A stretch of DNA of 61,393 nucleotides, filler included, from Globobulimina sp. (GCA_003354225.1; 17 parts of 17 records of this genome joined end to end with filler, not necessarily neighbours in it); one strand, 5' to 3'. Counted from the whole stretch's first letter, positions 3,520-36,583 are shown. Numbers and translations: made by a program. Notes: generated by a model from the letters alone, not told the origin.

Positions 3520-3619
3520 NNNNNNNNNNNNNNNNNNNNNNNNNNNNNNNNNNNNNNNNNNNNTTAATTAATTAANNNNNNNNNNNNNNNNNNNNNNNNN
3601 NNNNNNNNNNNNNNNNNNN
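3520..3619. other. Artificial contig linker (44N-TTAATTAATTAA-44N); 16 copies in the window
   Basis: Identical 100-bp spacers start at 3520, 7139, 10758, 14377, 17995, 21613, 25231, 28849, 32466, 36083, 39700, 43316, 46932, 50548, 54164 and 57779. They carry stops in all six frames, and contig lengths never increase along the window. Confidence 0.99.
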
Positions 3620-3750
3620 TAATTAAATTAAAAGTAATAATTGAGAAAAGATAATAAAATCAAGCACAAAAAAAAAACAAATTATATGGACATAAAAATA
3701 AACGAAAAAAAATATATTAAAATGAATGTAAGCATTTTATATAATATCCT

Positions 3751-4237
3751 TTATCCAAATGAGTTCTCAGCAGACTAAGCAACATAAAGAAATCCATCTT
3801 CATCTTTATGTTTTTGATAAACATCAGCCATCATCTTACCGTTTACCACCAATATGTCGTTAATAAATAAGAAGATCGACTGTTGTGAGGTTAATTTGAT
3901 ACGTTTTCTGTGAATAGAAATGTTTTGATGATCAAACAAATCGGTTAAATATTAAATTTGTGCACATAGTCACAGACCTTATTACTTTAACAAATTGAGC
4001 AACGGTAAGTTCTTTCGGGACCAATATTTTTGATCTATCCATTTCCTGAATGCATGATTTTGGATCACGTTCACATATCACAGGGACTCTTTTTGTTAAT
4101 CACAACAAATATGAATTGATGATAGTGACCAACTGGCCAATTATTTTATACCTGTCGCTATATTTGGACAAAACTCGTGTTGCTTTATCTCTTCTTTCTT
4201 GCAAACAATGTTGTTTTTTAAATGCAAATTCATGCAT
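3751..4237 (-). pseudogene. ATG8: ATG8/GABARAP-family ubiquitin-like gene, 3 exons, with an in-frame TAG near the C-terminus
   Basis: Not in the ORF track. Spliced translation: [116 protein letters not shown]. Two GT-AG introns. TAG at 3775-3777. Confidence 0.9.
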
Positions 4238-4566
4238 TGGAAAATATATTATGTTGGTTTTGCTGTGCCAAAGAATAATACGTATTGTCTGATGAACTGG
4301 TTACAATTGGTATTATTGTATGATGACGAAGCGGATTTTATTACCTTTTGTGCTGTTGCTGATATTGCAAGTTCAAGAGCGTGTTTTTTTTTCACTAACA
4401 AAAACATTAATTTGTTTATACATTATACATTAGTTATAAATTAAGCGACTTAAGGCTTTCGTTTAATTTCCAACCAGCTAAGAATCATATTGTTATCATA
4501 ATTAATCTCATAATTTACATCGATATTCATAGCAATTAGCAAACAAATCCAAAGAAACTAACGGCG

Positions 4567-5425
4567 ATGGCATCATCTTGTTCGACATCGATAATGAAAG
4601 AGGTCAAAAAACTACTGCGAAAACCATTGGATGACATTGAAATAATGATAAAAAATGATAATATTTTCATATTGAATGCCATTGTTAGCGGACCAGAATC
4701 GACACCTTTTGAAAGTGGTAAATTTGAGATTGAATTGCATTTTAATCATAATTATCCACAGCAACCACCAAAAGGATATTTTGTTACAAAAATATTTCAT
4801 CCAAATGTGGCACCATCAAATGGCGAAATTTGTGTAAATACACTTAAAAGAGATTGGAAGCCATCGTATGGAATAAAACATATTTTAATCGCAATTCGAT
4901 CATTACTAATTGTTCCAAATTATGATTCAGCGCTTAACGAAGAAGCTGGAAAACTTTTATTAACCTCTTATCAGCATTATGTTGAAAGAGCGCGTCTATT
5001 TACAAAAATACATTCCATTGTTAAGTATATATAATATATTTTATATTTTGTGCTCGGAATTTCATAATTTGAATATTTATGCAAATCGTTTCTGTTTTTG
5101 TTTTTGTTTTTCGTTGTTTGATTGATAGAAAAAAAAAGCAATTATCAAAGATACAGATGTATGCTATAAAAATGATGATGATACAAACAATGGGAAAGTC
5201 ATTGGGGATAAGGAGAATTTAAATGGATCGAAAGAATGTGATGAAACTAATAAATCACAGAAAAGATATTTGAATGAAAATGTAAATGAAAAGAATAAAG
5301 AAAACAATGGTAATACCAAACATGATGAAAATAACAATAACAATAAAAATAAATCGAAATCAAAAAGTAAATCAAAATCAAAAAGCAAAAAATCAAAAGT
5401 TTCTAAATCAATGAGAAGATTATAA
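4567..5425 (+). CDS. UBE2S: Ubiquitin-conjugating enzyme E2 S, 2 exons (intron 5020-5128)
   Basis: PPKGYFVTKIFHPNV, GEICVNTLKRDW, SALNEEAGKLL. Exon 2 ends in the basic UBE2S-type tail KSMRRL*. Confidence 0.92.
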
Positions 5426-7138: not shown

Positions 7139-7238
7139 NNNNNNNNNNNNNNNNNNNNNNNNNNNNNNNNNNNNNNNNNNNNTTAATTAATTAANNNNNN
7201 NNNNNNNNNNNNNNNNNNNNNNNNNNNNNNNNNNNNNN

Positions 7239-10885: not shown

Positions 10886-13564
10886 ATGTCACAGTCTTTA
10901 TCCGAAAAAGAAATTCAAGTGAATGTAGTTTTGGAAGAAACACCAACAAATAGATTAAACCAACAGTATGTCTCGTTTTTGCCACTCTAAAATACATACA
11001 AATTACATACAATTGCATTTTTTGTTATTATTACAGATCAGTCAGAATGGTTGGTTTTGTTATCATCACTGATCCAGACATTAAACTATCCGACCTACGT
11101 TTAAAAATCCTCTCAGAATTAGATGGGCAACAATTACAAATAATTGGTCTAAATTTTAAATTCCTCAAAAAAATATTTCCTGTTTCATCCAAACAAGAAA
11201 TATCAATGACACTAAAAAAAATCTATGTAAATCTCTCAAATCCCAGTAACCCTCAATCAGACATACAAAACCAAACACAATCCCCAAACCATAAGCTTGT
11301 TAACAGCCTGATTTCCAGCAAAGAAACAACTCGATCATCCAGTGCACCATACACAGGTTCGCCTACATCTGCCTTCATCCTCGCACAAAAACAACACAAA
11401 ACAACAAAAAAACACAGCCAACAACAGCTTAATTATGGTGAATGAAGATGAAAAACAAAGTAACGAACGGCAACCAGATAACAATCCAGATACAATACCA
11501 TTTGATGTATTACCCCATCATTATCAATACATGTCATCCCATCTTAGCATCACCTCACCAATGCTCCAACGTACTAATGCTTCAAACACAAATACAAATA
11601 GCACTGGTAATCAGTCTGCATTCCCTAAAGTAACAATGTTTACTGCTCAGCAAACAAGTTAAGTTGTGTTCAATTTTGTTTCTGAACCTATGTAATTACA
11701 AATGAATTGTATACAGATGAACATTTAACGGAAATGGAATACACTGTGATGATACGTGCATGTCATAGTGTTTTAGGTGAGGCAGAGGCTATACATCGAT
11801 CCGTATCAGATGATGTTAGGTTACTTTCAGTATCAAATATTGACAATAATGTCAGTAACAATCGCAATAATGCACGGACCCATGGTCGTGGCTTACTTAA
11901 TGTAAAAAACACAAATAATGCACGCACACCATTCATATCACCAAATAAAAACAAAAAAAAAGAAGCAGCAAACAAGAATACTGCTAGTTTTCTGTCATCG
12001 TATCCAATCTCGCCAAAAAACACTCGTTTGGAGACCCAATTAGGCGAAAAATTGCCGAGAATTGGACCCAAAACAACCAAAGAATCACAACGGATAACCC
12101 CTTCAAATGAAGTTGATTCTATATTGAAAAAAGCAATGACGTCACGGAAGAAGAACGTATTTATATCCGTTGAAGAAGAAGAGTCAATATCAATTTCTGT
12201 GAATGAACATACAAATTTAAAAACTGATTCCCAACATCCAAATTGCTCCATTGTTCCATTGAAAGCAGAAGATGGCCACAAGGATAAATATCAAAGTGAT
12301 AAAACAGCGACACCGCCCTTTACTTTTGCCTATCCAAAACAAATCAAATCAGCAAATTCTTCGCTTTCAGCTGCTGTGGACTCGGATATTAAGGCCAATT
12401 ATTTGATCGATGATAATATAAAATGTAAGTTTACAGTGACTGGCTCACCGATGATAAATATGAATGAAAATAAGGATGCGGGAGATAATATTGTCTGGGA
12501 ATTTGAAAAAGAATCGGATTTAATTAAAGGACTAAGCGGAGTGCATCATAGTGTTACCAATCCATTGTGGATTGACTTGGTTTGTGACAGGAACACTTTT
12601 ATCAACATTGCTGAACATATACGTCCGTGCATACATAAGCTGACCATCGAGGATTGTTTAACTATTGATTGTAGGGAGAAATTGGAGATATTTAAGGATT
12701 ATTTGTTTATTTGTTTAAGGTATGTTCAACACAAATGTTTTTATGTTAATGTGCAAATTACTGTACATATTTTTGTAATGCAGGACCTCATCGGATGATC
12801 ATTCCACGACACAGACCATAAATATATTAATATTTAAGACAATGATAATAACGTATCATTTGGGACATGTTATCACATTGTCAGTGATAGAAAATGTTGG
12901 GTTGATATTGAAGAAAAAATTTGGAAATATTTGCCCGTCTCCGTCATGGATTTGCCATACAATCATTGATAATGTGATTGATAAAATGATGCCTGAAGTG
13001 GAGGCCACTGTGCGTGAGGTCGAAACTTGCGAGCAATTTGTATTCAAATTATGCAATGAATCGCAAAATGAGTTGTTACATAGGATGCAAATTGCAAGAG
13101 CATGGATGGTATTGTACAGATCACGATTATGGCCCAAATCTACCATTACATATAACTTATTGAACAATTATTTGTGGAGAAAAGACTTTCTTTCCGATGT
13201 GCCGCAACCATATTGGAGGGATATTAATGATCATGTTGCGAGAATGGTTGATTTATTAGAATTAGGTACGCAAACTTTAGAGTCTATACAGAATATATTT
13301 GTTGCGAAGGTTTCACTCGAAATGACGCAGCAATCCAATAATTTGGCGACCGTTGGTGGTAAGTTAGCAGGCATTGGTGCTGTGTTCTTGCCATTGACTG
13401 TGATTACAGGTATTTGGGGAATGAATTGTAAAGTACCATTTCAATACGCCCCTGAAGCAAATACGCTATTTAATAATAATATTTATGGTTTTCTGATTGT
13501 GATGGTTATTATGCTGTGCTCTTCTATTTTTACTTGGAAATTTGTGAAGAAACAGACGGGTTAA
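10886..13564 (+). CDS. CorA/Alr1-family Mg2+ transporter, multi-exon
   Basis: Start MSQSLSEKE at 10886. Introns near 10966-11036, 11356-11428, 11658-11716 and 12720-12783. IHKLTIEDCL..REKLEIFKDYLF, FLPLTVITGIWGMNCKVP (GMN motif), two C-terminal TM helices. Confidence 0.9.
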
Positions 13565-13707: not shown

Positions 13708-14376
13708 ATGAGTTCATTGCGTCGTTTGTGTCGGTTCTCCGGTCGTTTATCACCTACATTGTCATCCAGATCATTTTCAAGTGGTTTGAATGATCAAGTC
13801 ACCGCAATATTAGGTGCCCAATGGGGTGACGAAGGCAAAGGCAAATTAGTAGACATTTTAGCCACCCAATATGATATTTGCGCGCGTTTTAACGGCGGCG
13901 CAAACGCAGGGCATACATTAGTGGTTGATGGAGAAAAATTTGCAATGCATTTATTGCCATGCGGTGTATTGAACAAACACTGTATAAATGTGATTGGAAA
14001 TGGTGTGGTAGTACACGTACCAACATTAGTCCAAGAATTACAATCCTTATTAAACACAAACATATCCATTGATGGCAGAATATTAATCTCAGATCGTGCA
14101 CACATTTTATTTGATTTCCATCAAGAAATTGATGCAATTTTAGAAAATCTACGCGACTCAAATGACACTAAAAAAGATGTTGAAATTGGCAGCATTGGCA
14201 CAACGCGAAGAGGTATCGGCCCTGCTTATGCTTCCAAAATGTATAGAAATGGAATAAGGTTTGGTGATTTAAAGGATTTTACCAAATTCAAAGACAAATA
14301 TTTACGTTTAGGTATGACTGACATTGCATATATCAAAATAATCAAACATTCACTGTTAAAAACCATATTATTGGCA
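13708..14376 (+). CDS. ADSS: Adenylosuccinate synthetase, 3'-partial, with N-terminal presequence
   Basis: GAQWGDEGKGKLVD, RFNGGANAGHT, HLLPCG, IGTTRRGIGPAYASK. An intron donor GTATGA begins at ~14312. Confidence 0.97.
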
Positions 14377-18094: not shown

Positions 18095-19776
18095 TTACAA
18101 ACATATAGAAAATAAAATAAAAACAAAAACTTTAACTGCAAATGTTTGCTCATCGATATCATTCAAATTCATATTTGGCACTTCGGCCACCAAATATCCC
18201 AAAGCCCAATCAATGGCACCTTCCCCCTCAACATCCCCGGTCTCAATATTACGAATCACACGGAATCGAGTAAAATCCTCCAAATTAAATCCTTTTTTCA
18301 ATATCGCCAATAACCAACTTGCACAGAAGCATGTTTTCTTAATTTCATCATCTGAGGCTTCCGGAAACTCTCTCTTCGCCACAGACACTTCCAAAGAGCA
18401 ATAATGCGCGCCAATTTCTTCTAATTTATCCAAGAATTCTTTCCCATGAATGCCTTCCAACCCTAACACTTTTGCTGTATAATAGAAATTTTCGATGTAA
18501 TAAAATTCATTCATACTGCTCCCGACGTCAATTTTCGGCATTAATACACTATTTGGTGTACATATCATATCCTTCATTTCGGTCGATACCACGCATTTGG
18601 ATTTTAATTTATCGTCGATCATATCACTTAATCCATTATAACATTTTTTAAAACTGCCAATGCCTTTCCATGTTATCGACTGTCCAATGCCATGCTGTCG
18701 TTGTCTGGTATCGCCTTCACAAAACCACACGGTACAAAACATGCAGCCATTATCCAAAAAAAAAACCTCAAGCTAGTAAAAAAAACATGCCTTTGTTGTA
18801 GCATGGCGACGACTTTCGCTGTTTCAGTTTAGTAGCAAGATACGTGTCATATCTATTCTGTGCCGCTTCCATCCCAATGCCCATCCACGAGTAGGTGAAT
18901 AATTCGAACTCCACATCGCCAATAGTCACGCTATCAATATACTGAGTGGACTGCGGTTTATATCTATTCAATGAAATAAGTTGCGGCTCTTGCGGTATGA
19001 ACGTAATTTGCAACGACTCGCCACCCATTTCCAACACGCCTTTAGTAGTCTGTTTTGCATACAAACTGTCCTTATTCAATTGCAATAACTTAGCAAGCTC
19101 TCCATTTAAATAATTTGCTGCGATCCAGCCCCATAAACCTTCATTCATTCCTTCACAAAACAGGAAGTCAGCAGTACGGAAATGGCATTGTGTGCCTACA
19201 CAGTTGCATACCTTCGATGATTTTGACGCCTTGCCGCAATATAATAAACTCTGAGGATTCCGATAAATATTTATATACAATATCGAGAATTTGCTGCGCC
19301 GTGTTGCTATTTAAATTTCTGTCGCGCACTTTCCGCATTCCAGCAGAGGCCAACACGAATAACGGCGTATTGGTACGTTTTGATAACGGCACGTTGTCGC
19401 GTCCGAAGTTTAAGATTGGTTCCAGGTATTCGCCCATTGCGGTTATGTCCGTTGGATGGTCTTCGAATGAGGATAGGCCTGGCTTGAATTTGTGATATTG
19501 TTCGGATGCAATGTCGACGGATATTAATTTGCTGGCTGATGATTTCGTATATCGATAGACGTGAATACGTGAGCCAGTGGAACCTGCGTCGACTATGCAA
19601 ACGTAGTCGTATGGGTTCTGTACTGCTAATTTAGAATTTAAGACCGCTTCGTTTGGCAATGCATCGCCTTGCGTTGAGTTTATGAATGTGAGCAATGCGA
19701 TGCTTATAATGAATGAGATTACCATTATGTATCTGAATTTGATGTTGTATTTTAAGTTGTTAATAAAATTTCGCAT
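18095..19776 (-). CDS. GDA1/CD39 apyrase (NTPDase), 3+ exons, 3'-partial
   Basis: ACR1 DAGSTGSRIHVY, ACR2 ASAGMR, ACR3 EGLWGWIAANY, ACR4 LEMGGESLQI, ACR5 IDWALG. Introns ~19151-19211 (GT-AG) and ~18715-18790 (GC-AG). Confidence 0.93.
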
Positions 19777-25099: not shown

Positions 25100-25330
25100 T
25101 TTAACTTTTGACACTGTTTGTTGCAGTAAATCAATTGACATTAGTTTTATAACTTTAGGAAAACTCTATGCATAGACTTGCATCGTTTCTTCAAAGGAAC
25201 AACTCTGCCGACACGACAATTCCAGAGAATNNNNNNNNNNNNNNNNNNNNNNNNNNNNNNNNNNNNNNNNNNNNTTAATTAATTAANNNNNNNNNNNNNN
25301 NNNNNNNNNNNNNNNNNNNNNNNNNNNNNN

Positions 25331-26248
25331 CTCAGATATACCAATATTAAAATTGCCAACAAATGGACTTATTTTAAGTTTCCAGAATTTCTGTTGTCCG
25401 AAACCAATTATTTGAGTGCCAAAGGCATAATATCTGAGATGCTTATTTCGTTCATGTATCCTGCTCACAGAGTTTCTATTATTGTCAATTGAAAGCATCG
25501 CATTCGTTTTATATTTGTTCCATGATTCAGGCACATCGTTTTTAATATGCTTCCAATCCATGTTCGTCAGACATGTTTTACTCAATTTATTGCCACATAG
25601 TTTGTGAATTTCATTATAATTTTTAGCGCAATAAAACACAAAATAGTAATAATAGCATAATTCAATGAGTTCATTTGGAATATTCGAATAATGTCTGCAA
25701 AAACCATAAACTATGATATGTTCGTATATAATATCTCTTTGTTGTGTAACACGACATGGTGAAATTTGTTTATTTTTACATAAATCTGTGATAATTGACT
25801 CTATTATACATGGTGGTATTTCTTGTTTATATCTATCAAATCCAAAACGAAATATTAATGATAATAATTTAGGCTCAATTATTTGTGATAAGTCATGTAG
25901 ATATTTTATAATTTGTTTCTTTGACAATTTGAATATTTCTTGTCTGATTTGAACAAATTCAAGCGCTTTCATAAATTTTTTATCCTTTGTTATTTTGTTG
26001 ATGTTGCAGTTATATTTTACATGGAACTGCATATTTGAAGGTAAAACATTTAACATCTTGGATTGTAATGATGATGAAAAACTGCTGCAATTGAATAAAT
26101 ATCCCAATCCACAATCAACTATTTTCCCAAATAACTCAGATTTAGCTTTTTGATAAAATAACACTACCCACAAAGGAATAAAATCGCATAAATCATCAAA
26201 TAATAAAGATACAAAGCAAAATTTATTCTGCCTGGAGCCATGTTTCAT
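25331..26248 (-). CDS. Hypothetical protein with IVYGFCR..IPNELIELCYYYY motif and probable SPRY-like C-terminus, 3'-partial
   Basis: Open frame. AFGTQII...WKLKI...NIGI resembles the start of a SPRY/B30.2-like domain. The upstream part of the tracked ORF overlaps the 3' end of the neighbouring gene and is not real. Confidence 0.55.
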
Positions 26249-26402
26249 TGTTGTGCAAGGATCGAGGATCAAAGTATTGTATACAAAGTACAAAATTGCG
26301 ACAATAGATCTAATAACCACACAATAAAAAAAAAAAAAAAAAACAATATCCCAAAACCATATCAATACAATACAAAAAAAAAAAAAGTGATTATATACTA
26401 AA

Positions 26403-28494
26403 TTATAATTTAATACTTGATTGAAGATATTGCGGATCACATCCATGATAGGGAGCAATTCTTTGTTTGTTTCTGCCAGCAATATTCTTCTTGACTGTAT
26501 CCAAGGAATTCTCGAAATAATTTCGAAACAATTTGCTAGTTTCATTTAATTTTTCATCGAGGAGCACCACGCCCCAACCGGCCCTCTTATCGTTGGGGTC
26601 TGCCGGCCGAGCAATCTGCGGTGGAAGGCGTAGATTCGCATATTGCCAGCCTTTGGATAAAACCACCAAACAATACTCGGCATAGCCGGACACATTGCTT
26701 TGTTTGGCATAATTGCCCACAATTTTGAGTCCAGTAAAATCGGCATCGATGGAATACTCAAAGCTCACCGCAGTGTTTATGTGATGGCTCCATATGGTCG
26801 CATTGCATAGAAAGTGCGTTAAGATGTTAATAATATTAAATTTCTTCAACCTGTATTTGTTGGCAATGCCCAAATTCTGCAAAACCGCCTCATAAAAGGC
26901 CACCAATTCCTTATCCGCCGCTAACAGCGAATCGTCCGTATCTTCGTCGTTATAAAATTGCTGGATGTACTCCTCCACAAATTTGAGTGTTTGCACCCAG
27001 AAATCCCACACATCCGTATAAATGGGATAGATTTCATCGGGCAATTTCTTCATAATCACCACTTTCTTCCTAAATAAGCGGAATCTGTACTTCATTTGGT
27101 CAGAGATGTCGCGCAATTCGCCTTTGTTCAAAACGGGTGCGTCGGACATGCCGTCTTTGATCAATCGCTGCAATTCGCCGTATTTGAAGGCAAAGCATCG
27201 ATGATACAAACCATTTTCACGCAAATATTCGTTAAATACGCGATTGCAATACACGGTGCCCAATGTAAACGGCACCAAAAAGCGCCGGATCGCGTGGTCC
27301 GCACTCAAATATTTCCTCACTGCAGCTATCAAACCGGAGGACTCTCGAAAGCGAGAATGCGCCAACATGTCCACCAAAAATGTCGCCACTGACACCGATA
27401 CCTATTGTAAATATCATATATATATATCGATCAATGATCACCTGCGTTATCCTCGCACTTATAATTAGACACACCTTCCAAGCCCATTTCGCGTGATTCC
27501 ACTCTTGAATGGTAGAGCCCGTTCCGTCCGCAGCCTCGTTCGGCGGTTTGTACGTCAGCCCAGAGTCCGACAGAAAGATTTGCTGTAAATGGTACTTGGA
27601 GTCAAAGTAAGCCGCAGCTCCATACATCTCAAAGCCGCTACGCACGCCGTACTGCGCCAGGAAAGTCACGTCGTTAACAAAATAAGTGTCTGGATGCTGT
27701 TGGCTCTTTGCGAGCGGCCCAGTTCTATGCGAGCCGTAGCCGCAGAACGCAATCAATGTGACCCACATATCAGAGGTGTCGCCGTCGAAGGTATCGCCCA
27801 ACAAAGCGGACAAAATTTGGTTTTTGTCGCCTAAGTTGTTCACATCCACTTCCTCCCAATCATTTAATTGCTTTTTTCGCAAAGCGTCCGCGGGCGGATT
27901 GTTCCTCTCGTCTTTCTGCAATGCGTTGATGTTGGAAACGCCATAGATTTGGCCACCAATCGCGCCTTGGAAATAATTGCGAGCCTCGGCGAGGTCGTCT
28001 TTGCTGTCAGACCAGTCTGCTTTGGACGGCGGCTCCGCATTTTCATCGAATGAATGGCCCAATACGCCGTCACTGTATTTGCCATAATAGCACAGATCGG
28101 AGAAGAAGCCCAAATCGCCGTAATATTCATCCACCGCAGGGATGGAATAGATGCTCGCCAGACTCGCGGGGACGTTGCCGCCGTCGAAACAGTTTAAACC
28201 TATGGTCGAGGTGTCATTGTATGGCGGGGGGAAAGTTATGACATTGCGGGGGTCGAAGCCTTGGTCGATTTGGTTGAGCTGATTGCTGCGTTCGTCGCTG
28301 ATCATTGATTTGGTGAAAGAATCGATCTCATCGTTGACTTTGTCCATTGCCTATGTGTTAATTATGTGGATGTATGTAGAATAATGTTGGTGGTGTGGTG
28401 GGAGAAGATGTAGAACTTCTTGTATTATTTGGCTCTTTTCTCTGTCGTCAGGGTCGCCTGATTCTTGTCCCAAGCAATCGCATATATCTGCCAT
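26403..28494 (-). CDS. Lipoxygenase-like protein (probably catalytically degenerate), 3 exons
   Basis: Start MADICDCLG at 28494; introns ~28351-28416 and ~27402-27473. WNHAKWAWK, RKYLSADHAIRRFLVPFTLGTVYCN, YPIYTDVWDFW...VEEYIQQFY, DKELVAFY, RNKQRIAPYHGCDPQYLQSSIKL. Confidence 0.8.
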
Positions 28495-32465: not shown

Positions 32466-32567
32466 NNNNNNNNNNNNNNNNNNNNNNNNNNNNNNNNNNN
32501 NNNNNNNNNTTAATTAATTAANNNNNNNNNNNNNNNNNNNNNNNNNNNNNNNNNNNNNNNNNNNNTT

Positions 32568-32711
32568 TTTATGGATTCACTAAAGGATTCGTGGGATCTG
32601 CCCTTTGGTTATTTGGTTGTTGATTTGAGCCCAGAAACAGATGACTGCATTAGACTTAGAACTAAAATTTTTCCAGACGAGATCACATGCGTATATGTAC
32701 CAAAAAACTAA
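32568..32711 (+). CDS. Polinton packaging ATPase (A32/FtsK-like), C-terminal end only
   Basis: Not in the ORF track. FMDSLKDSWDLPFGYLVVDLSPETDDCIRLRTKIFPDEITCVYVPKN* matches the typical P(Y/F)GYL..DL...T....RLRT.IFP.E tail. Confidence 0.8.
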   Translation, partial: FMDSLKDSWDLPFGYLVVDLSPETDDCIRLRTKIFPDEITCVYVPKN

Positions 32712-32843
32712 TCATTGATGTAGAGAGTGTGAGAGGGAGAGAGAGAGATAAGTTAAGCAAGTATGTGTGTCATATTACATCAGATGTCGTAACCACGAAG
32801 CCATTGTGGCCTGCTCAAACGTGCACTGATAGATTACAATGGA

Positions 32844-32993
32844 TGACGTAATAGTGACACAATAGTTGCACGCTCGGGCAAGCCTGAACATGGTCTCTTG
32901 TATTTTATGCCAATGACACTGCTCGCTGCGGCAAGTTCAGGCATGCCCAAGTTCCATATATATATTCCGGGAACTCAACTTCAGTCATCAGTT
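32844..32993 (+). promoter_or_regulatory. Metazoan-style Pol II promoter: CRE/ATF-like site, two p53-family response elements, CCAAT, TATA, Inr
   Basis: TGACGTAA 32844-51; GGGCAAGCCT-GAACATGGTC 32876-95; CCAAT 32910-14; CGGCAAGTTC-AGGCATGCCC 32929-48; TATATATA 32957-64; TCAGTC 32981-86 and TCAGTT 32988-93. Confidence 0.72.
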
Positions 32994-33035
32994 TAAACAG
33001 AGAGCTGTTTTGGAAAGGGACAATATTATAAAATA

Positions 33036-33449
33036 ATGACATCCAAGAGTGCAGCGAAATATAATGACAAGAATAACAATATGCGCTGTTGGCTGAATAA
33101 ATTCAATGACAAATGGTACGCCCATTTTCAGCAGGAAGTAAAGGAAAAAAAGGATAAAAGAAGAAAGTACATTTACTTAATGGGTCACACCCTTGCTAAA
33201 TTGGAAGGAAAACTGACAGAAACGATTGGTAAACATTGCAGTGAAGGTCAGTGCGAAACTATCGACAAACGTGGCGACTTCGATGTTCAGTTTGGCCCTA
33301 GGCAAGATGGAGGAGGCTATCAGATGAGTGTGGTTTTACTAGAGGAATCAAACAACAATGAACCATGGAGCATCATCGAAATAAATGATTTGGTAGAATT
33401 TATGATAGCTGTTCGCACGTTAAACGTGGAATATTTGAAACATATATAA
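33036..33449 (+). CDS. Polinton accessory protein, unknown function
   Basis: 137-aa ORF downstream of a complete promoter, followed by AATAAA at ~33458. Confidence 0.75.
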   Translation: MTSKSAAKYNDKNNNMRCWLNKFNDKWYAHFQQEVKEKKDKRRKYIYLMGHTLAKLEGKLTETIGKHCSEGQCETIDKRGDFDVQFGPRQDGGGYQMSVVLLEESNNNEPWSIIEINDLVEFMIAVRTLNVEYLKHI

Positions 33450-33525
33450 AAAAGGCTAATAAAATTGATTGCCATTGTTTGTTTTGGTTACTGTCATGTA
33501 TGTATAAATAAAATAAAATTCCGAA

Positions 33526-33864
33526 ATGTCGAAACGATTAAAACAAAACATTGTATTACTTAGGGCATTACGAAGAGCTACCCCTAAGCAAGCCAAAATA
33601 CTGCTTAGCAAGACAAATAGCAGAGAACTTGTACTTTGTTTGTGCGAGATTGCAGATAACATTTTGGCTGGTACAGTTAAACTGACACCAAAACAGAAAA
33701 GAACGTTGTCAAATCACAAAAAAACCCTACGTGTGTTGGCCAATAAAAAAGTAAAAATTTCGGTGAAACGAAAGTTGTTAAATAATCAAAAAGGTGGTTT
33801 TTTCCCAGCAGTCCTTGCACCAGCACTAAGCGTTGCTGCAGCACTCTTAGGGCAATTTTTGTGA
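33526..33864 (+). CDS. Polinton/adintovirus small basic virion protein with adenain-type cleavage site and amphipathic tail (cupiennin-like)
   Basis: LCEIADNIL.G.V.L...K..L..HKK.LR.LA....KRKLL.NQKGGFFPAVLAP pattern characteristic of Maverick small ORFs. TATAAATA at 33503-10. Confidence 0.8.
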   Translation: MSKRLKQNIVLLRALRRATPKQAKILLSKTNSRELVLCLCEIADNILAGTVKLTPKQKRTLSNHKKTLRVLANKKVKISVKRKLLNNQKGGFFPAVLAPALSVAAALLGQFL

Positions 33865-33867
33865 ACA

Positions 33868-34674
33868 ATGGTGGATAAAACTTATCGTAAAATGGCTTTA
33901 GTGCCACAACAGTTGTTAGAAGGGCTGGCTGGTCAGCAACATTTGAATCCTGGTCTTTCACAGTTGCCGCGCCTAGACAATAGTATGCAGGAACTGCTTA
34001 GACAAAAGAACTTGCCCCCTGACCTTAAACACGCTGAATACAGCCAATTGATGCACCATTACAAAACTATGAAAGAGCAACAAATGCGCCCACAAGAACA
34101 GTTTATGCAACCAAATCAGATGATATATCAAGAACCAGTACCGTCAACTGCCATTGGTAGTCAAAATTTGCTTGCACTCCAGCCTACTATGTCTTACACT
34201 GAGCAATACATGCCAGAGATAAATCATGATCAAATCATTGGAAATATGCCAAAAAATTACAAAAACAAAGCGCGTCTGTTGCTTTCCCATCTGGATCGGA
34301 TAAGCAATTTGACATGGGATCAAAAGGGACAATTGATAATCGATGGGCAAACTATTCCCAACACAAACATTGTTGACTTGGTACATGACTACACAAAAGG
34401 CGCCCGACGTGGTGCTCCACCTGAAGGATGGCATACATTTGGCCGTATATTGAGGCAGACAAATGTACCACAAGAAGCAATTGGTAATAAGAAAAGATTC
34501 AACCAAGTAAACAGAACACCAACACCACAGTTGGCAGTAATAGATGATAGCAGCGAAACAGAACTTGGACCAAGCACGAGCAAGAGATCCCCCAGAAAAA
34601 GTAAAAGAACAAAAAAACCAGTTGAAAAATTAACCATGGGCCATGGTTGGCGCCCTTTCAACCAAAAGATATAA
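33868..34674 (+). CDS. Conserved Polinton/adintovirus protein that normally precedes the integrase
   Basis: KMALVP...LD..M..LL....L....K...Y.Q, KARLLL..L....TWD.KGQLIIDG..IP.TNIVDLV.D, P.GW..F...L...NVP..AIGN..R. Confidence 0.82.
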   Translation: MVDKTYRKMALVPQQLLEGLAGQQHLNPGLSQLPRLDNSMQELLRQKNLPPDLKHAEYSQLMHHYKTMKEQQMRPQEQFMQPNQMIYQEPVPSTAIGSQNLLALQPTMSYTEQYMPEINHDQIIGNMPKNYKNKARLLLSHLDRISNLTWDQKGQLIIDGQTIPNTNIVDLVHDYTKGARRGAPPEGWHTFGRILRQTNVPQEAIGNKKRFNQVNRTPTPQLAVIDDSSETELGPSTSKRSPRKSKRTKKPVEKLTMGHGWRPFNQKI

Positions 34675-34734
34675 ACATAAATAAATATGCGTTTATTGTT
34701 ATTCATTTTTCTGTTATCAATTCATTAATAAACA

Positions 34735-34791
34735 ATGGAAAATTTACTCAAAAAATTGTACTACAGCCCTGAAATTACAGGTACATATTAA
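34735..34791 (+). pseudogene. Polinton retroviral-like integrase, first 18 codons only
   Basis: MENLLKKLYYSPEITGTY* matches the L.K.YY.P...G(S/T)(Y/F) integrase N-terminus and sits in the expected syntenic position. Confidence 0.65.
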
Positions 34792-34801
34792 ATAACCTTA
34801 A

Positions 34802-34833
34802 AAACATGCTCGGACATGAATCATATGACGTCA
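34802..34833. promoter_or_regulatory. p53-family response element + CRE module, copy 1
   Basis: AAACATGCTC-GGACATGAAT-CATA-TGACGTCA; imperfect direct repeat of 35251-35282. Confidence 0.7.
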
Positions 34834-34862
34834 CAGTAAGATTTATTATTGACTGTAAAACA

Positions 34863-35201
34863 TTACATATCGGAATGAAAGTAATCAAAAAGTGGCTTCA
34901 GTATTGTATAGGCTTTTCTGGCATCGTCTTTATTATTTTGGAACACTTTTGCTGAAAGTATGGCACCTTCTAGTGTGGTTTCTTTAAGTGTTTGTTCTCT
35001 TGTCCATAATGGGCTATAACCCCAACCCTTTGCAATCTTGCGAAAAAAGCACTTATCACAAGACGCCATTTTGTTCCACACACATTCATTGAATTGTGCA
35101 TTGAAATCTTTACAATGCATAAATGGTCTATTCCTATTTTCCGCTTCACGCCCTCTGCAAAATAACCGTCGACACAATGACTTTCCATGCATTGGAGCCA
35201 T
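34863..35201 (-). CDS. Small Cys-rich Polinton accessory protein, unknown function
   Basis: 112-aa ORF with a minus-strand TATAAAAG (35238-35231) and the p53RE/CRE module directly upstream. Confidence 0.65.
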   Translation of the reverse strand: MAPMHGKSLCRRLFCRGREAENRNRPFMHCKDFNAQFNECVWNKMASCDKCFFRKIAKGWGYSPLWTREQTLKETTLEGAILSAKVFQNNKDDARKAYTILKPLFDYFHSDM

Positions 35202-35230
35202 TTTGGTATGTGGACACGGGCAACTGGTCC

Positions 35231-35303
35231 CTTTTATATTATGTTACACAAAACATGTCCAGGCATGTATCATATGACGTCACTAAATTTTCGAATATAA
35301 ATA
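35231..35303. promoter_or_regulatory. Bidirectional promoter: TATA(-) / p53RE / CRE / TATA(+)
   Basis: TATAAAAG on minus 35238-31; AAACATGTCC-AGGCATGTAT 35251-70; TGACGTCA 35275-82; TATAAATA on plus 35296-303. Confidence 0.72.
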
Positions 35304-35328
35304 AAAATCGCAAGGGTGAATTAGTTTA

Positions 35329-35898
35329 ATGTTTCAAACAAAAGTATGTAAGTGTATGTATAAAATGGAATTATGTAATATTGTGATATGTGGGACGTTC
35401 GGTTGCCCCATTGACCTGAAAAGAGTTACACCATCGGACATAATCAGTGTCGAGAAAAAACAACGGTTTCCAGGCTTAATTGTACGTATTCACGATCCAA
35501 AGACAACAATTTTAACTTTTGGCAATGGCAAAATAGTATGCAATGGAATTAAGAATGTTGAAACAGCAAGAAAAGCTACACAATTGTTAGCTCAAAAACT
35601 GAATTTATTAGGGAACGCGATTAACATTGAAAAAACACTGGATAGCTTGGCAGTTGTTAATATGGTGGCGTCATGTACATTAGACTTTAAGATTAATTCC
35701 GAGCAATTGGCAATGGCCTATCATAGAGAGGCAGTGCTTGAGAAAGAATTATTTCCAGGACTTTGTTTTAAATTAGATGGTGCCACTTTTCTGATTTTTC
35801 ATTCTGGAAAAGTGATAGTTACAGGATTAAAAACATTTGAGTCGATTGAACGTATTTGGACTTGTATGTTTAAAATTTTATATAAGTTTAAAAAATAA
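35329..35898 (+). CDS. Element-encoded divergent TATA-box-binding protein
   Basis: Both TBP repeats are present: NIV...RFPGLIVRIHDPKTTILTFGNGKIVCNG and NMVASC...ELFPGLCF...FLIFHSGKVIVTG. Intronless. AATAAA overlaps the stop codon. Confidence 0.93.
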   Translation: MFQTKVCKCMYKMELCNIVICGTFGCPIDLKRVTPSDIISVEKKQRFPGLIVRIHDPKTTILTFGNGKIVCNGIKNVETARKATQLLAQKLNLLGNAINIEKTLDSLAVVNMVASCTLDFKINSEQLAMAYHREAVLEKELFPGLCFKLDGATFLIFHSGKVIVTGLKTFESIERIWTCMFKILYKFKK

Positions 35899-36182
35899 AC
35901 AGTCAGTGTCGTGATTAAAGTTTTCATACCATTTTTGTTATCGCTTGATGGAGCAATAAAACGTTCAATAACTTAATTCCATATAAACACACAAAACATA
36001 ATATCATCAAACTACAGTATGCTACCTAAATTACGTTGCTAAATGAGTTGCTGCACTCTGGAACACAAATAAATGTGTAATANNNNNNNNNNNNNNNNNN
36101 NNNNNNNNNNNNNNNNNNNNNNNNNNTTAATTAATTAANNNNNNNNNNNNNNNNNNNNNNNNNNNNNNNNNNNNNNNNNNNN

Positions 36183-36583
36183 GGAAATGACATGCAATCA
36201 TCCCACAGTGTAAGTGTATTATTTTCAGATTTGTACAATATTTTTGGATTTAATATTAAGAAGCTTTCATTATTTGTCATCCCCGACAAGTTCGTGTATG
36301 AACCGGTTAAATTCATTGCAATCATTCGCAAATCGATATTAATTTGAATTGCCGACATTGCTCTGCCAAAACCATTGCGATCACGGAATCTTTTCAATGC
36401 CAGTTTTAATTGTTTTGATTGAACCTTAAAATCATTGGATGATAATATTTCTTTTGATACTGGTCTTGATATGTCACGTAAACGTGGATGACCCAAGATA
36501 AGCACTGGTGGGATGTAAACAGTTGATTGCTTGTTTCGGATAAAATTAAGGGTTGAATCAATTAATTCGAGTACAACTGACAT
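36183..36583 (-). CDS. Peptide deformylase, divergent GFGRA/WDDCMS subtype, 3'-partial
   Basis: LGHPRLRDISRPV, motif 1 GFGRAMSAIQ, NPKI, motif 2 WDDCMSF. Truncated before HExxH. Confidence 0.85.

Follow-up and report, generated by a model that had tools for sequence, protein, structure and literature searches.

TBP genes of viruses and mobile elements are already known, and the link of the TBP described here to such an element is plausible. TBP is reported in 59% of the Mirusviricota genomes (PMC10132985), and some mirusvirus-like mobile elements found in a green alga have it sporadically (PMC10675990). Starrett et al. (2021, Virus Evol 7:veaa055) provide a precedent of the Maverick type: the legend to their Fig. 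5 lists "TBP" among the genes of MELD (Maverick/Polinton/adintovirus-like) viruses of non-animal eukaryotes; the legend in the preprint of that work describes such genes as homologues of host proteins, and the available text of the published paper contains neither a TBP sequence nor a discussion of TBP. This legend is the only Maverick-type precedent found in our literature search (supplements and figures may list more), and the main text of Bellas et al. 2023 (PMC10120064) contains none of the terms TATA, TBP or "transcription factor". The TBPs of giant viruses (Nucleocytoviricota) and Mirusviricota are virus-encoded TBP folds that presumably recognise viral promoters; these viruses encode an RNA polymerase of their own, whereas a Maverick does not. 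The MELD virus TBP resembles the protein analysed here in being carried by a midsize dsDNA element with an integrase and adenovirus-type genes; it is known from the figure legend alone, and the resemblance does not imply the same lineage or element family.

The TBP analysed here is encoded in a 61,393-nt stretch of DNA (Globobulimina sp., GCA_003354225.1), the whole of which is hereafter called the window. The core of cellular eukaryotic TBP (yeast 1YTB, human 1CDW) has the same saddle as the window TBP (TM 0.84-0.85, rmsd 1.7-2.3 A) and has in common with it the four intercalating Phe and the Asn pair as well as E-x-E-L in the second stirrup. The window TBP differs from these cellular proteins in several respects: it is only 32-36% identical to them, lacks the N-terminal extension, has LEKELFPG instead of YEPELFPG in the second stirrup and the archaeal-style RFPG instead of RFAA in the first one, and shows a shortened loop after the second stirrup, an Asn at position 72 (N72) and fewer basic residues in helix H2. 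Archaeal TBPs are like the window TBP in being short, in having no extension and in containing FPG in both stirrups, but are separated from it by a 99/99 branch in the phylogenetic tree and give a weaker structural match (TM 0.77-0.79). TRF2/TLF (TBPL1) is likewise a divergent TBP fold without a long N-terminal domain; it is not known to bind TATA and has lost the Phe residues that intercalate there, whereas the window TBP keeps all four.

The window consists of 17 pieces of 3,515-3,519 nt each, joined by artificial N44-TTAATTAATTAA-N44 linkers (positions 3520-3619, 7139-7238 and so on, with a spacing of ~3,617 nt). Three genes that are cut by linkers do not resume past the linker (Table 1), so that the cellular genes in the other pieces, which encode coatomer beta, RCC1, G-alpha, CorA, adenylosuccinate synthetase, GDA1/CD39, MFS, E2, a mitochondrial carrier, a PI3/4-kinase, PPR-Smr and peptide deformylase, are not demonstrable neighbours of the TBP gene. 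Given the linkers and the three cut genes without continuation, we rejected the view that the whole window represents one cellular locus, and the piece 32566-36082 (~3.5 kb, with 184 nt 3' of the TBP gene) was used as the only context of this gene.

In the other pieces, the gene for the GDA1/CD39 nucleoside phosphatase (18095-19776, minus strand) is represented by three ORFs that span positions 5-133, 134-247 and 260-415 of the Pfam profile, with gaps of only ~22-28 nt between them; these gaps may be very short introns (for example, GT...AG near 18786-18773) or frameshifts in a low-coverage assembly. The CorA-like transporter (11734-13564, plus strand) occupies two ORFs with 44 nt between them, a split that may be a short intron. 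Three overlapping long ORFs at 25283-28347 on the minus strand (420, 321 and 371 aa), for which no Pfam family was found and along which GC3 climbs from 0.27 to 0.59, may be one frameshifted gene.

Table 1. Features of the piece that carries the TBP gene, and genes cut by linkers (positions in the window)
Feature	Position	Strand	Remarks
Adenylosuccinate synthetase	cut at 14376		cut by linker; no continuation on far side
ORF 3' end at start of TBP piece	32568-32711	+	open frame from linker to stop; cut by piece boundary; no continuation on far side of linker
137-aa Maverick accessory gene	33036-33449	+	tblastn to L001, L003, L004: 27-28% identity, E 1e-11 to 7e-8
TATAAATA box	33503-33510	+	16 nt before ATG of 112-aa gene
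112-aa Maverick accessory gene	33526-33864	+	hydrophobic GGFF... tail; 53-55% to L001-L004, E 2e-35 to 1e-26
268-aa Maverick accessory gene	33868-34674	+	40-43% to L001-L004
Integrase fragment 1	34735-34773	+	first 13 codons; L001 integrase residues 5-17, 69% identity, z 7.1
34-nt direct repeat, copy 1	34801-34834	+	family D4; contains TGACGTCA; between integrase fragments
112-aa Cys-rich ORF, doubtful	34863-35201	-	no Pfam family; antisense to integrase fragment 2
Integrase fragment 2 (pseudogene)	35082-35150	+	different frame; L001 integrase residues 96-118, z 8.4
34-nt direct repeat, copy 2	35250-35283	+	TGACGTCA at 35275-35282; putative TBP promoter
TATAAATA box	35296-35303	+	26 nt before ATG 35329; 62 nt before ATG 35365
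TBP gene	35329-35898	+	189-aa ORF, ATG to stop; probable start ATG 35365 gives 177 aa
AATAAA, candidate poly(A) signal	35955-35960	+	57 nt past TBP stop
Peptide deformylase	cut at 36183		cut by linker; no continuation on far side

The TBP ORF encodes a full two-repeat TBP saddle. It matches the Pfam TBP family (PF00352) over two repeat stretches with an E-value of 6.6e-39 and 132 bits (cut-off 22.9). It also matches 35 distinct TBP sequences from PDB, with E-values down to ~1e-25; at the base composition of the piece, the probability that a frame of 189 codons stays open by chance is ~7e-7. An in-frame stop at 35317-35319, three codons 5' of the first ATG, makes an upstream extension of the protein impossible without splicing. 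The true start is probably Met13 because the nearest relatives, the metagenomic proteins P0039 and P0040, begin at ME-x-x-N, without the leading residues; this start also agrees with the disorder of the first 13 residues in the structural model. The AATAAA downstream of the gene is weak evidence of a poly(A) signal given that this hexamer is common in AT-rich DNA.

The earlier note, which was made from the sequence alone, had described a divergent TBP that keeps the four intercalating Phe and both symmetric Asn, and these motifs are indeed in place: RF (R46-F47), TF (F64), LF (F142) and IF (F157), along with NIV (N17) and NMV (N111). The substitution of LEKELFPG (residues 137-144) for YEPELFPG in the second stirrup is likewise as the note described it; one continuous frame spans both repeats, so that no intron has to be assumed, and at most 12 residues precede the core, as claimed for the lack of an N-terminal extension. 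The characteristic TBP residues present include N17, V19, R46, F47, R53, L62, F64 and K68 in the first repeat and N111, V113, F142, L155, F157, K161, T165 and K168 together with E138/E140/L141 further on, and the residues that are invariant or nearly so across 76 TBPs are all kept. The Phe and Asn positions are those that we take to intercalate into or contact TATA DNA in cellular TBPs, and the E-x-E-L of the second stirrup, retained here as E138, E140 and L141, presumably corresponds to the residues that contact TFIIB in those proteins. The DNA-contact residues are kept in both repeats with one exception, the Thr of CTGAK in the first repeat, which is replaced by Asn (N72).

An AlphaFold (AF2) model of the protein, with a 76-sequence alignment as the input, has a mean pLDDT of 94.6 and a pTM of 0.86, and only residues 1-13 are unstructured in it. 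The best Foldseek match is yeast 1ytb (TM 0.85, rmsd 1.7 A, 34% identity); eukaryotic TBPs come on top of the list, and archaeal TBPs lower. The description of the protein as competent for DNA binding thus fits both the sequence and the predicted structure.

Sequence searches support the strong divergence asserted in the earlier note: among the matches listed by two large protein searches, the best are 28-44% identical to the window TBP. A word-indexed search of 5.8 billion proteins yielded 31 matches with 31-40% identity, and an exhaustive HMMER search of 1.84 billion representatives yielded 3,668 matches with E <=0.001, the best 150 of which are 30-44% identical; the large protein searches take in EukProt and MMETSP sources. 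The sole match below 1e-30 is a plant (Penstemon) protein of 376 aa, P0034, which contains two complete tandem TBP cores and owes its top score to summation over the two. The named top matches are mixed, including Aenigmarchaeota, an unnamed archaeon, a trematode TBPL2 and a plant, and the scores of several archaeal TBPs equal those of eukaryotic ones. For comparison, the G-alpha gene in another piece has a 61%-identical relative in EukProt, a yardstick that assumes that the pieces come from one organism; no comparably close relative of the TBP was found among the matches listed, where identity reaches 44% at most. No close TBP relatives were found in IMG/VR, and a scan of genome contigs with an alignment of the TBP subfamily gave no match. 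The nearest kin are P0039 (171 aa, from a 9,964-nt contig) and P0040 (173 aa, from a 12,165-nt contig). These two proteins share with the window TBP the stirrup LE[KR]ELFPGL, which was found in them only (2 of the 199 proteins compared), and the same short loop after it.

Two phylogenetic trees place the window TBP with these relatives. A quick tree, for which 197 core domains were thinned at 55% identity to 78 rows (two proteins with two TBP cores and six with partial cores were left out), shows a split between archaeal-type and eukaryote-type TBPs with an SH-aLRT support of 99, and the window TBP is on the eukaryote-type side. In a careful tree of 55 of these rows (43 eukaryote-type, with 12 archaeal-type rows as the outgroup), the window TBP groups with P0039 (support 98/84), and P0040 joins them at 92/73; a branch with 99/99 support parts the window TBP from the archaeal-type rows. 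Every named cellular eukaryotic TBP (plant, trematode, moth, MMETSP, Tara) belongs to a 20-row clade (97/86) that also holds one IMG/VR TBP, that of contig L010. The lineage of the window TBP lies outside this clade, among other metagenomic short TBPs of 171-184 aa. The grouping with a cellular TBP paralogue that the earlier note had named as the observation that would speak against it was not seen, and the window TBP belongs neither to the archaeal TBPs nor to the canonical cellular eukaryotic clade. Judging by sequence, the window TBP, P0039 and P0040 form a small, previously unnamed three-member TBP lineage. None of the viral TBPs from BFVD and IMG/VR groups with the window TBP in the trees: ten IMG/VR TBPs are 28-32% identical to it and the BFVD viral TBP models 8-21%, so that the solved cellular eukaryotic chains, at 32-36%, are closer than the viral TBPs found.

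Contig L010, the only IMG/VR contig with a eukaryote-type TBP, was examined by eye (3610-5058, minus strand, and neighbours). The TBP gene in it adjoins an ORF of 482 aa that looks capsid-like, a small one with a zinc-ribbon, TFIIS-like appearance and a third that resembles a kinase gene; by this inspection, the contig is more likely to be a fragment of a giant virus than a Polinton-like virus.

The three ORFs of 137, 112 and 268 aa upstream of the TBP gene are intact and lie on the same strand with it. No Pfam family was found for any of the three, and the 268-aa ORF has no close relatives in IMG/VR and no usable match in Atlas; it has three protein relatives with 41-44% identity, and an alignment-based scan with it led to four metagenome contigs, L001-L004, in which tblastn shows homologues of the three ORFs in the same order. 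In L001, a Peptidase_C5 gene (adenain-type protease, 1.9e-6) precedes the three-ORF block and an rve integrase (8.3e-11) comes directly after the 268-aa homologue; L003 also has a Peptidase_C5 (6.6e-5). Maverick/Polinton elements are recognised by an adenovirus-type protease accompanied by an rve integrase (see also Starrett et al. 2021). The ORF that is cut at the start of the piece is possibly the tail of a packaging ATPase, with a putative resemblance to the C-termini of such ATPases in Mavericks. For this tail, there was no Pfam match, and Atlas gave only anonymous short clusters. No terminal inverted repeats, protein-primed PolB or capsid genes were seen in the 3.5-kb piece, which extends only 184 nt downstream of the TBP gene, and a motif scan of the other pieces, which are not adjacent DNA, detected no PolB, capsid or ATPase genes. 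No TBP was found by tblastn in any of the four related contigs.

Within the 268-aa ORF, the contigs of sequencing run X1 show both C and T at position 34443 (depth of the other letter, 4.3 of 8.74), meaning that the element is present in a second copy or a second allele. Both ends of L002 (1-500 and 1700-1796) turn into unrelated sequence, the N-terminus of its 112-aa homologue is cut, and its integrase diverges past ~90 residues; this contig may be chimeric or may contain a captured fragment.

The junction between the Maverick genes and the TBP gene is rearranged. L001 and L002 have an integrase after the 268-aa gene; in the window, two integrase fragments occupy this place, and the TBP gene comes next, with the fragments ending ~180 nt 5' of its start. 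The fragments are collinear and out of frame with each other, the stretch between them is unrecognisable, and neither score was reached in any of 200 shuffles. A third fragment that was seen by eye at 35123-35326 was dropped (z -0.5). One run X1 contig leaves the window sequence exactly at 34774 and, by hand translation, reads on in the integrase frame, with resemblance to the next residues of the L001 integrase; therefore, another copy with a continuing integrase is present in the sample, and the copy in the window is rearranged at this point. Run X1 contigs in this piece are shorter than 420 nt. A 415-nt Logan contig from the same run covers 34991-35405 and so links integrase fragment 2 to the TBP gene; as run X1 may be the assembly's own source, this contig does not confirm the junction independently. 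The two copies of the 34-nt direct repeat are 85% identical (E 3e-6), with TGACGTCA being palindromic, and since one of them is located between the integrase fragments, sequence associated with the TBP gene is interleaved with Maverick sequence. The Cys-rich ORF on the opposite strand may be spurious, being antisense to integrase fragment 2. At 36066, 17 nt before the linker, a run X1 contig departs from the window and continues with similar, not identical sequence, which may represent a second, slightly different copy of the region 3' of the TBP gene.

Additional evidence on the relationship between the TBP gene and the Maverick genes comes from the TATA-type boxes. The window contains 19 occurrences of TATAAATA against 9.8 expected, a number not reached in any of 100 shuffles. 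Two of the 19 precede a same-strand ORF of 100 aa or more by no more than 30 nt, and these ORFs are the 112-aa Maverick gene and the TBP gene; none of the remaining 17 boxes is so placed. At ~50 nt before the homologue of the 112-aa gene, L001 and L003 have TATAAATA and L004 has TATATATA, so that a TATA-type box is kept in all three relatives that hold this region. The boxes before the 112-aa homologues indicate that promoters of the TATA type serve this element family, and the TBP gene, too, is preceded by TATAAATA. The CRE-like motif TGACGT[CA]A, with three occurrences in the TBP piece and two in the other 16 pieces together, is a weak signal, and no full site of this type was found in L001-L004.

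The earlier note had placed the TBP on a mobile element. This placement is supported for the 3.5-kb piece, which contains three syntenic Maverick ORFs and, between them and the TBP gene, the integrase fragments; the gene may lie inside the element or beside a truncated copy, and none of the four related contigs has a TBP. We put at about even the chance that the TBP is cargo of a rearranged, integrase-defective Maverick/Polinton-like element, with the protein driving the TATA promoters of that element. In favour of this reading, the TBP gene is on the same strand as the Maverick genes and follows directly after them and the integrase fragments, its promoter repeat is interleaved with these fragments, the placement of TATAAATA is common to it and a Maverick gene, the protein has no N-terminal extension and no close cellular relative, and there is a published precedent of a TBP in such elements. 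Against it, the integrase is broken, so that the element could end before the TBP gene, no TBP was found in the four related Maverick contigs, and the viral TBPs found are less similar to the window TBP than cellular eukaryotic TBPs are. Synonymous codon choice, scored with a small training set, gives -0.079 for the TBP gene, -0.109 to -0.002 for the genes of the other pieces and -0.033 to +0.033 for the three Maverick ORFs; these values do not cleanly separate the cargo and host hypotheses, although the TBP gene is nearer the genes of the other pieces.

As cargo, the TBP could work in the following way. As a virus-like dsDNA transposon of midsize, resident in a microbial or other eukaryote, the element would lack an RNA polymerase. 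The TBP encoded by it would bind TATAAATA in the element promoters and recruit the host TFIIB and Pol II without TFIID, which would favour transcription of the element; its contacts with the factors that bind helix H2 or the N-terminal domain in cellular TBPs would differ. On this reading, the TBP gene is complete, probably functional and of a distinct short lineage.

The main alternative, which we regard as possible and on balance doubtful, is that the gene belongs to the host, some poorly sampled eukaryote, either as its cellular TBP, which would be evolving fast, or as a paralogue of TBP, and happens to lie beside a dead, truncated Maverick. Divergent TBPs are known from divergent protists. 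The integrase survives only as out-of-frame fragments, and the element may end near 35150-35250; the four related contigs without TBP, the codon choice resembling that of the genes of other pieces, the position of the protein on the eukaryote-type side of the tree with eukaryotic cellular TBPs nearest in both fold and sequence, and the lack of terminal repeats in the piece, seen as far as 184 nt downstream of the TBP gene, are all compatible with this explanation. It fits less well with an identity of at most 44% among the matches listed, EukProt and MMETSP included, as against 61% for G-alpha (if the pieces come from one organism), with the position of the window TBP outside the clade of all named cellular TBPs and with the missing N-terminal extension. 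The promoter-positioned TATAAATA that the TBP gene has in common with a Maverick gene, when 0 of the 17 other boxes are so placed, and the copy of the TBP promoter repeat between the integrase fragments also argue against a host gene.

It is unlikely that the TBP ORF is a recently dead relic, that is, an intact-looking frame in a decaying element that is no longer expressed or selected. Such a fate would be in line with the pseudogenized integrase next to it and the rearrangement of the locus, but the low chance of a 189-codon open frame, the retention of all residues that are invariant or nearly so across 76 TBPs and the intactness of the three neighbouring Maverick ORFs speak against it. Less probable still is a cargo protein acting as a decoy or competitor that occupies host TATA boxes or titrates TFIIB and so dampens host transcription, a role that the earlier note had named as the alternative to a retargeting of Pol II: in the PDB alignment, the window TBP has non-basic residues at three of the four helix H2 positions that are basic in human TBP (those that presumably bind TFIIA and other partners), the first stirrup is RFPG where eukaryotic TBPs have RFAA, the Thr of CTGAK is N72 and the N-terminal domain is missing, but the DNA-contact residues and the TFIIB-contacting E-x-E-L are both kept, which is what one would expect from a working initiation factor and favours an active TBP over a decoy, and the element's own genes carry conserved TATA boxes.

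If the gene is a host paralogue instead, the locus adds a very divergent protist TBP, a result of modest interest. The cargo reading would have broader implications. Most known viral TBPs belong to viruses equipped with an RNA polymerase; if the TBP is indeed cargo, small integrating DNA viruses that rely wholly on the host Pol II can carry a general transcription factor. The protein would then also be a natural minimal TBP (177 aa, without an N-terminal domain and with an altered helix H2), which could be used to map the surfaces required for TATA-dependent initiation. Tentatively, and with less confidence than we place in the cargo reading itself, we suggest that there is a Maverick/Polinton-like lineage with its own minimal, TFIID-independent TBP that reads TATAAATA boxes, with the window TBP, P0039 and P0040 as the first members. 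If so, a mobile virus without a polymerase would have gained a private promoter-recognition factor that hijacks the TFIIB and Pol II of the host.
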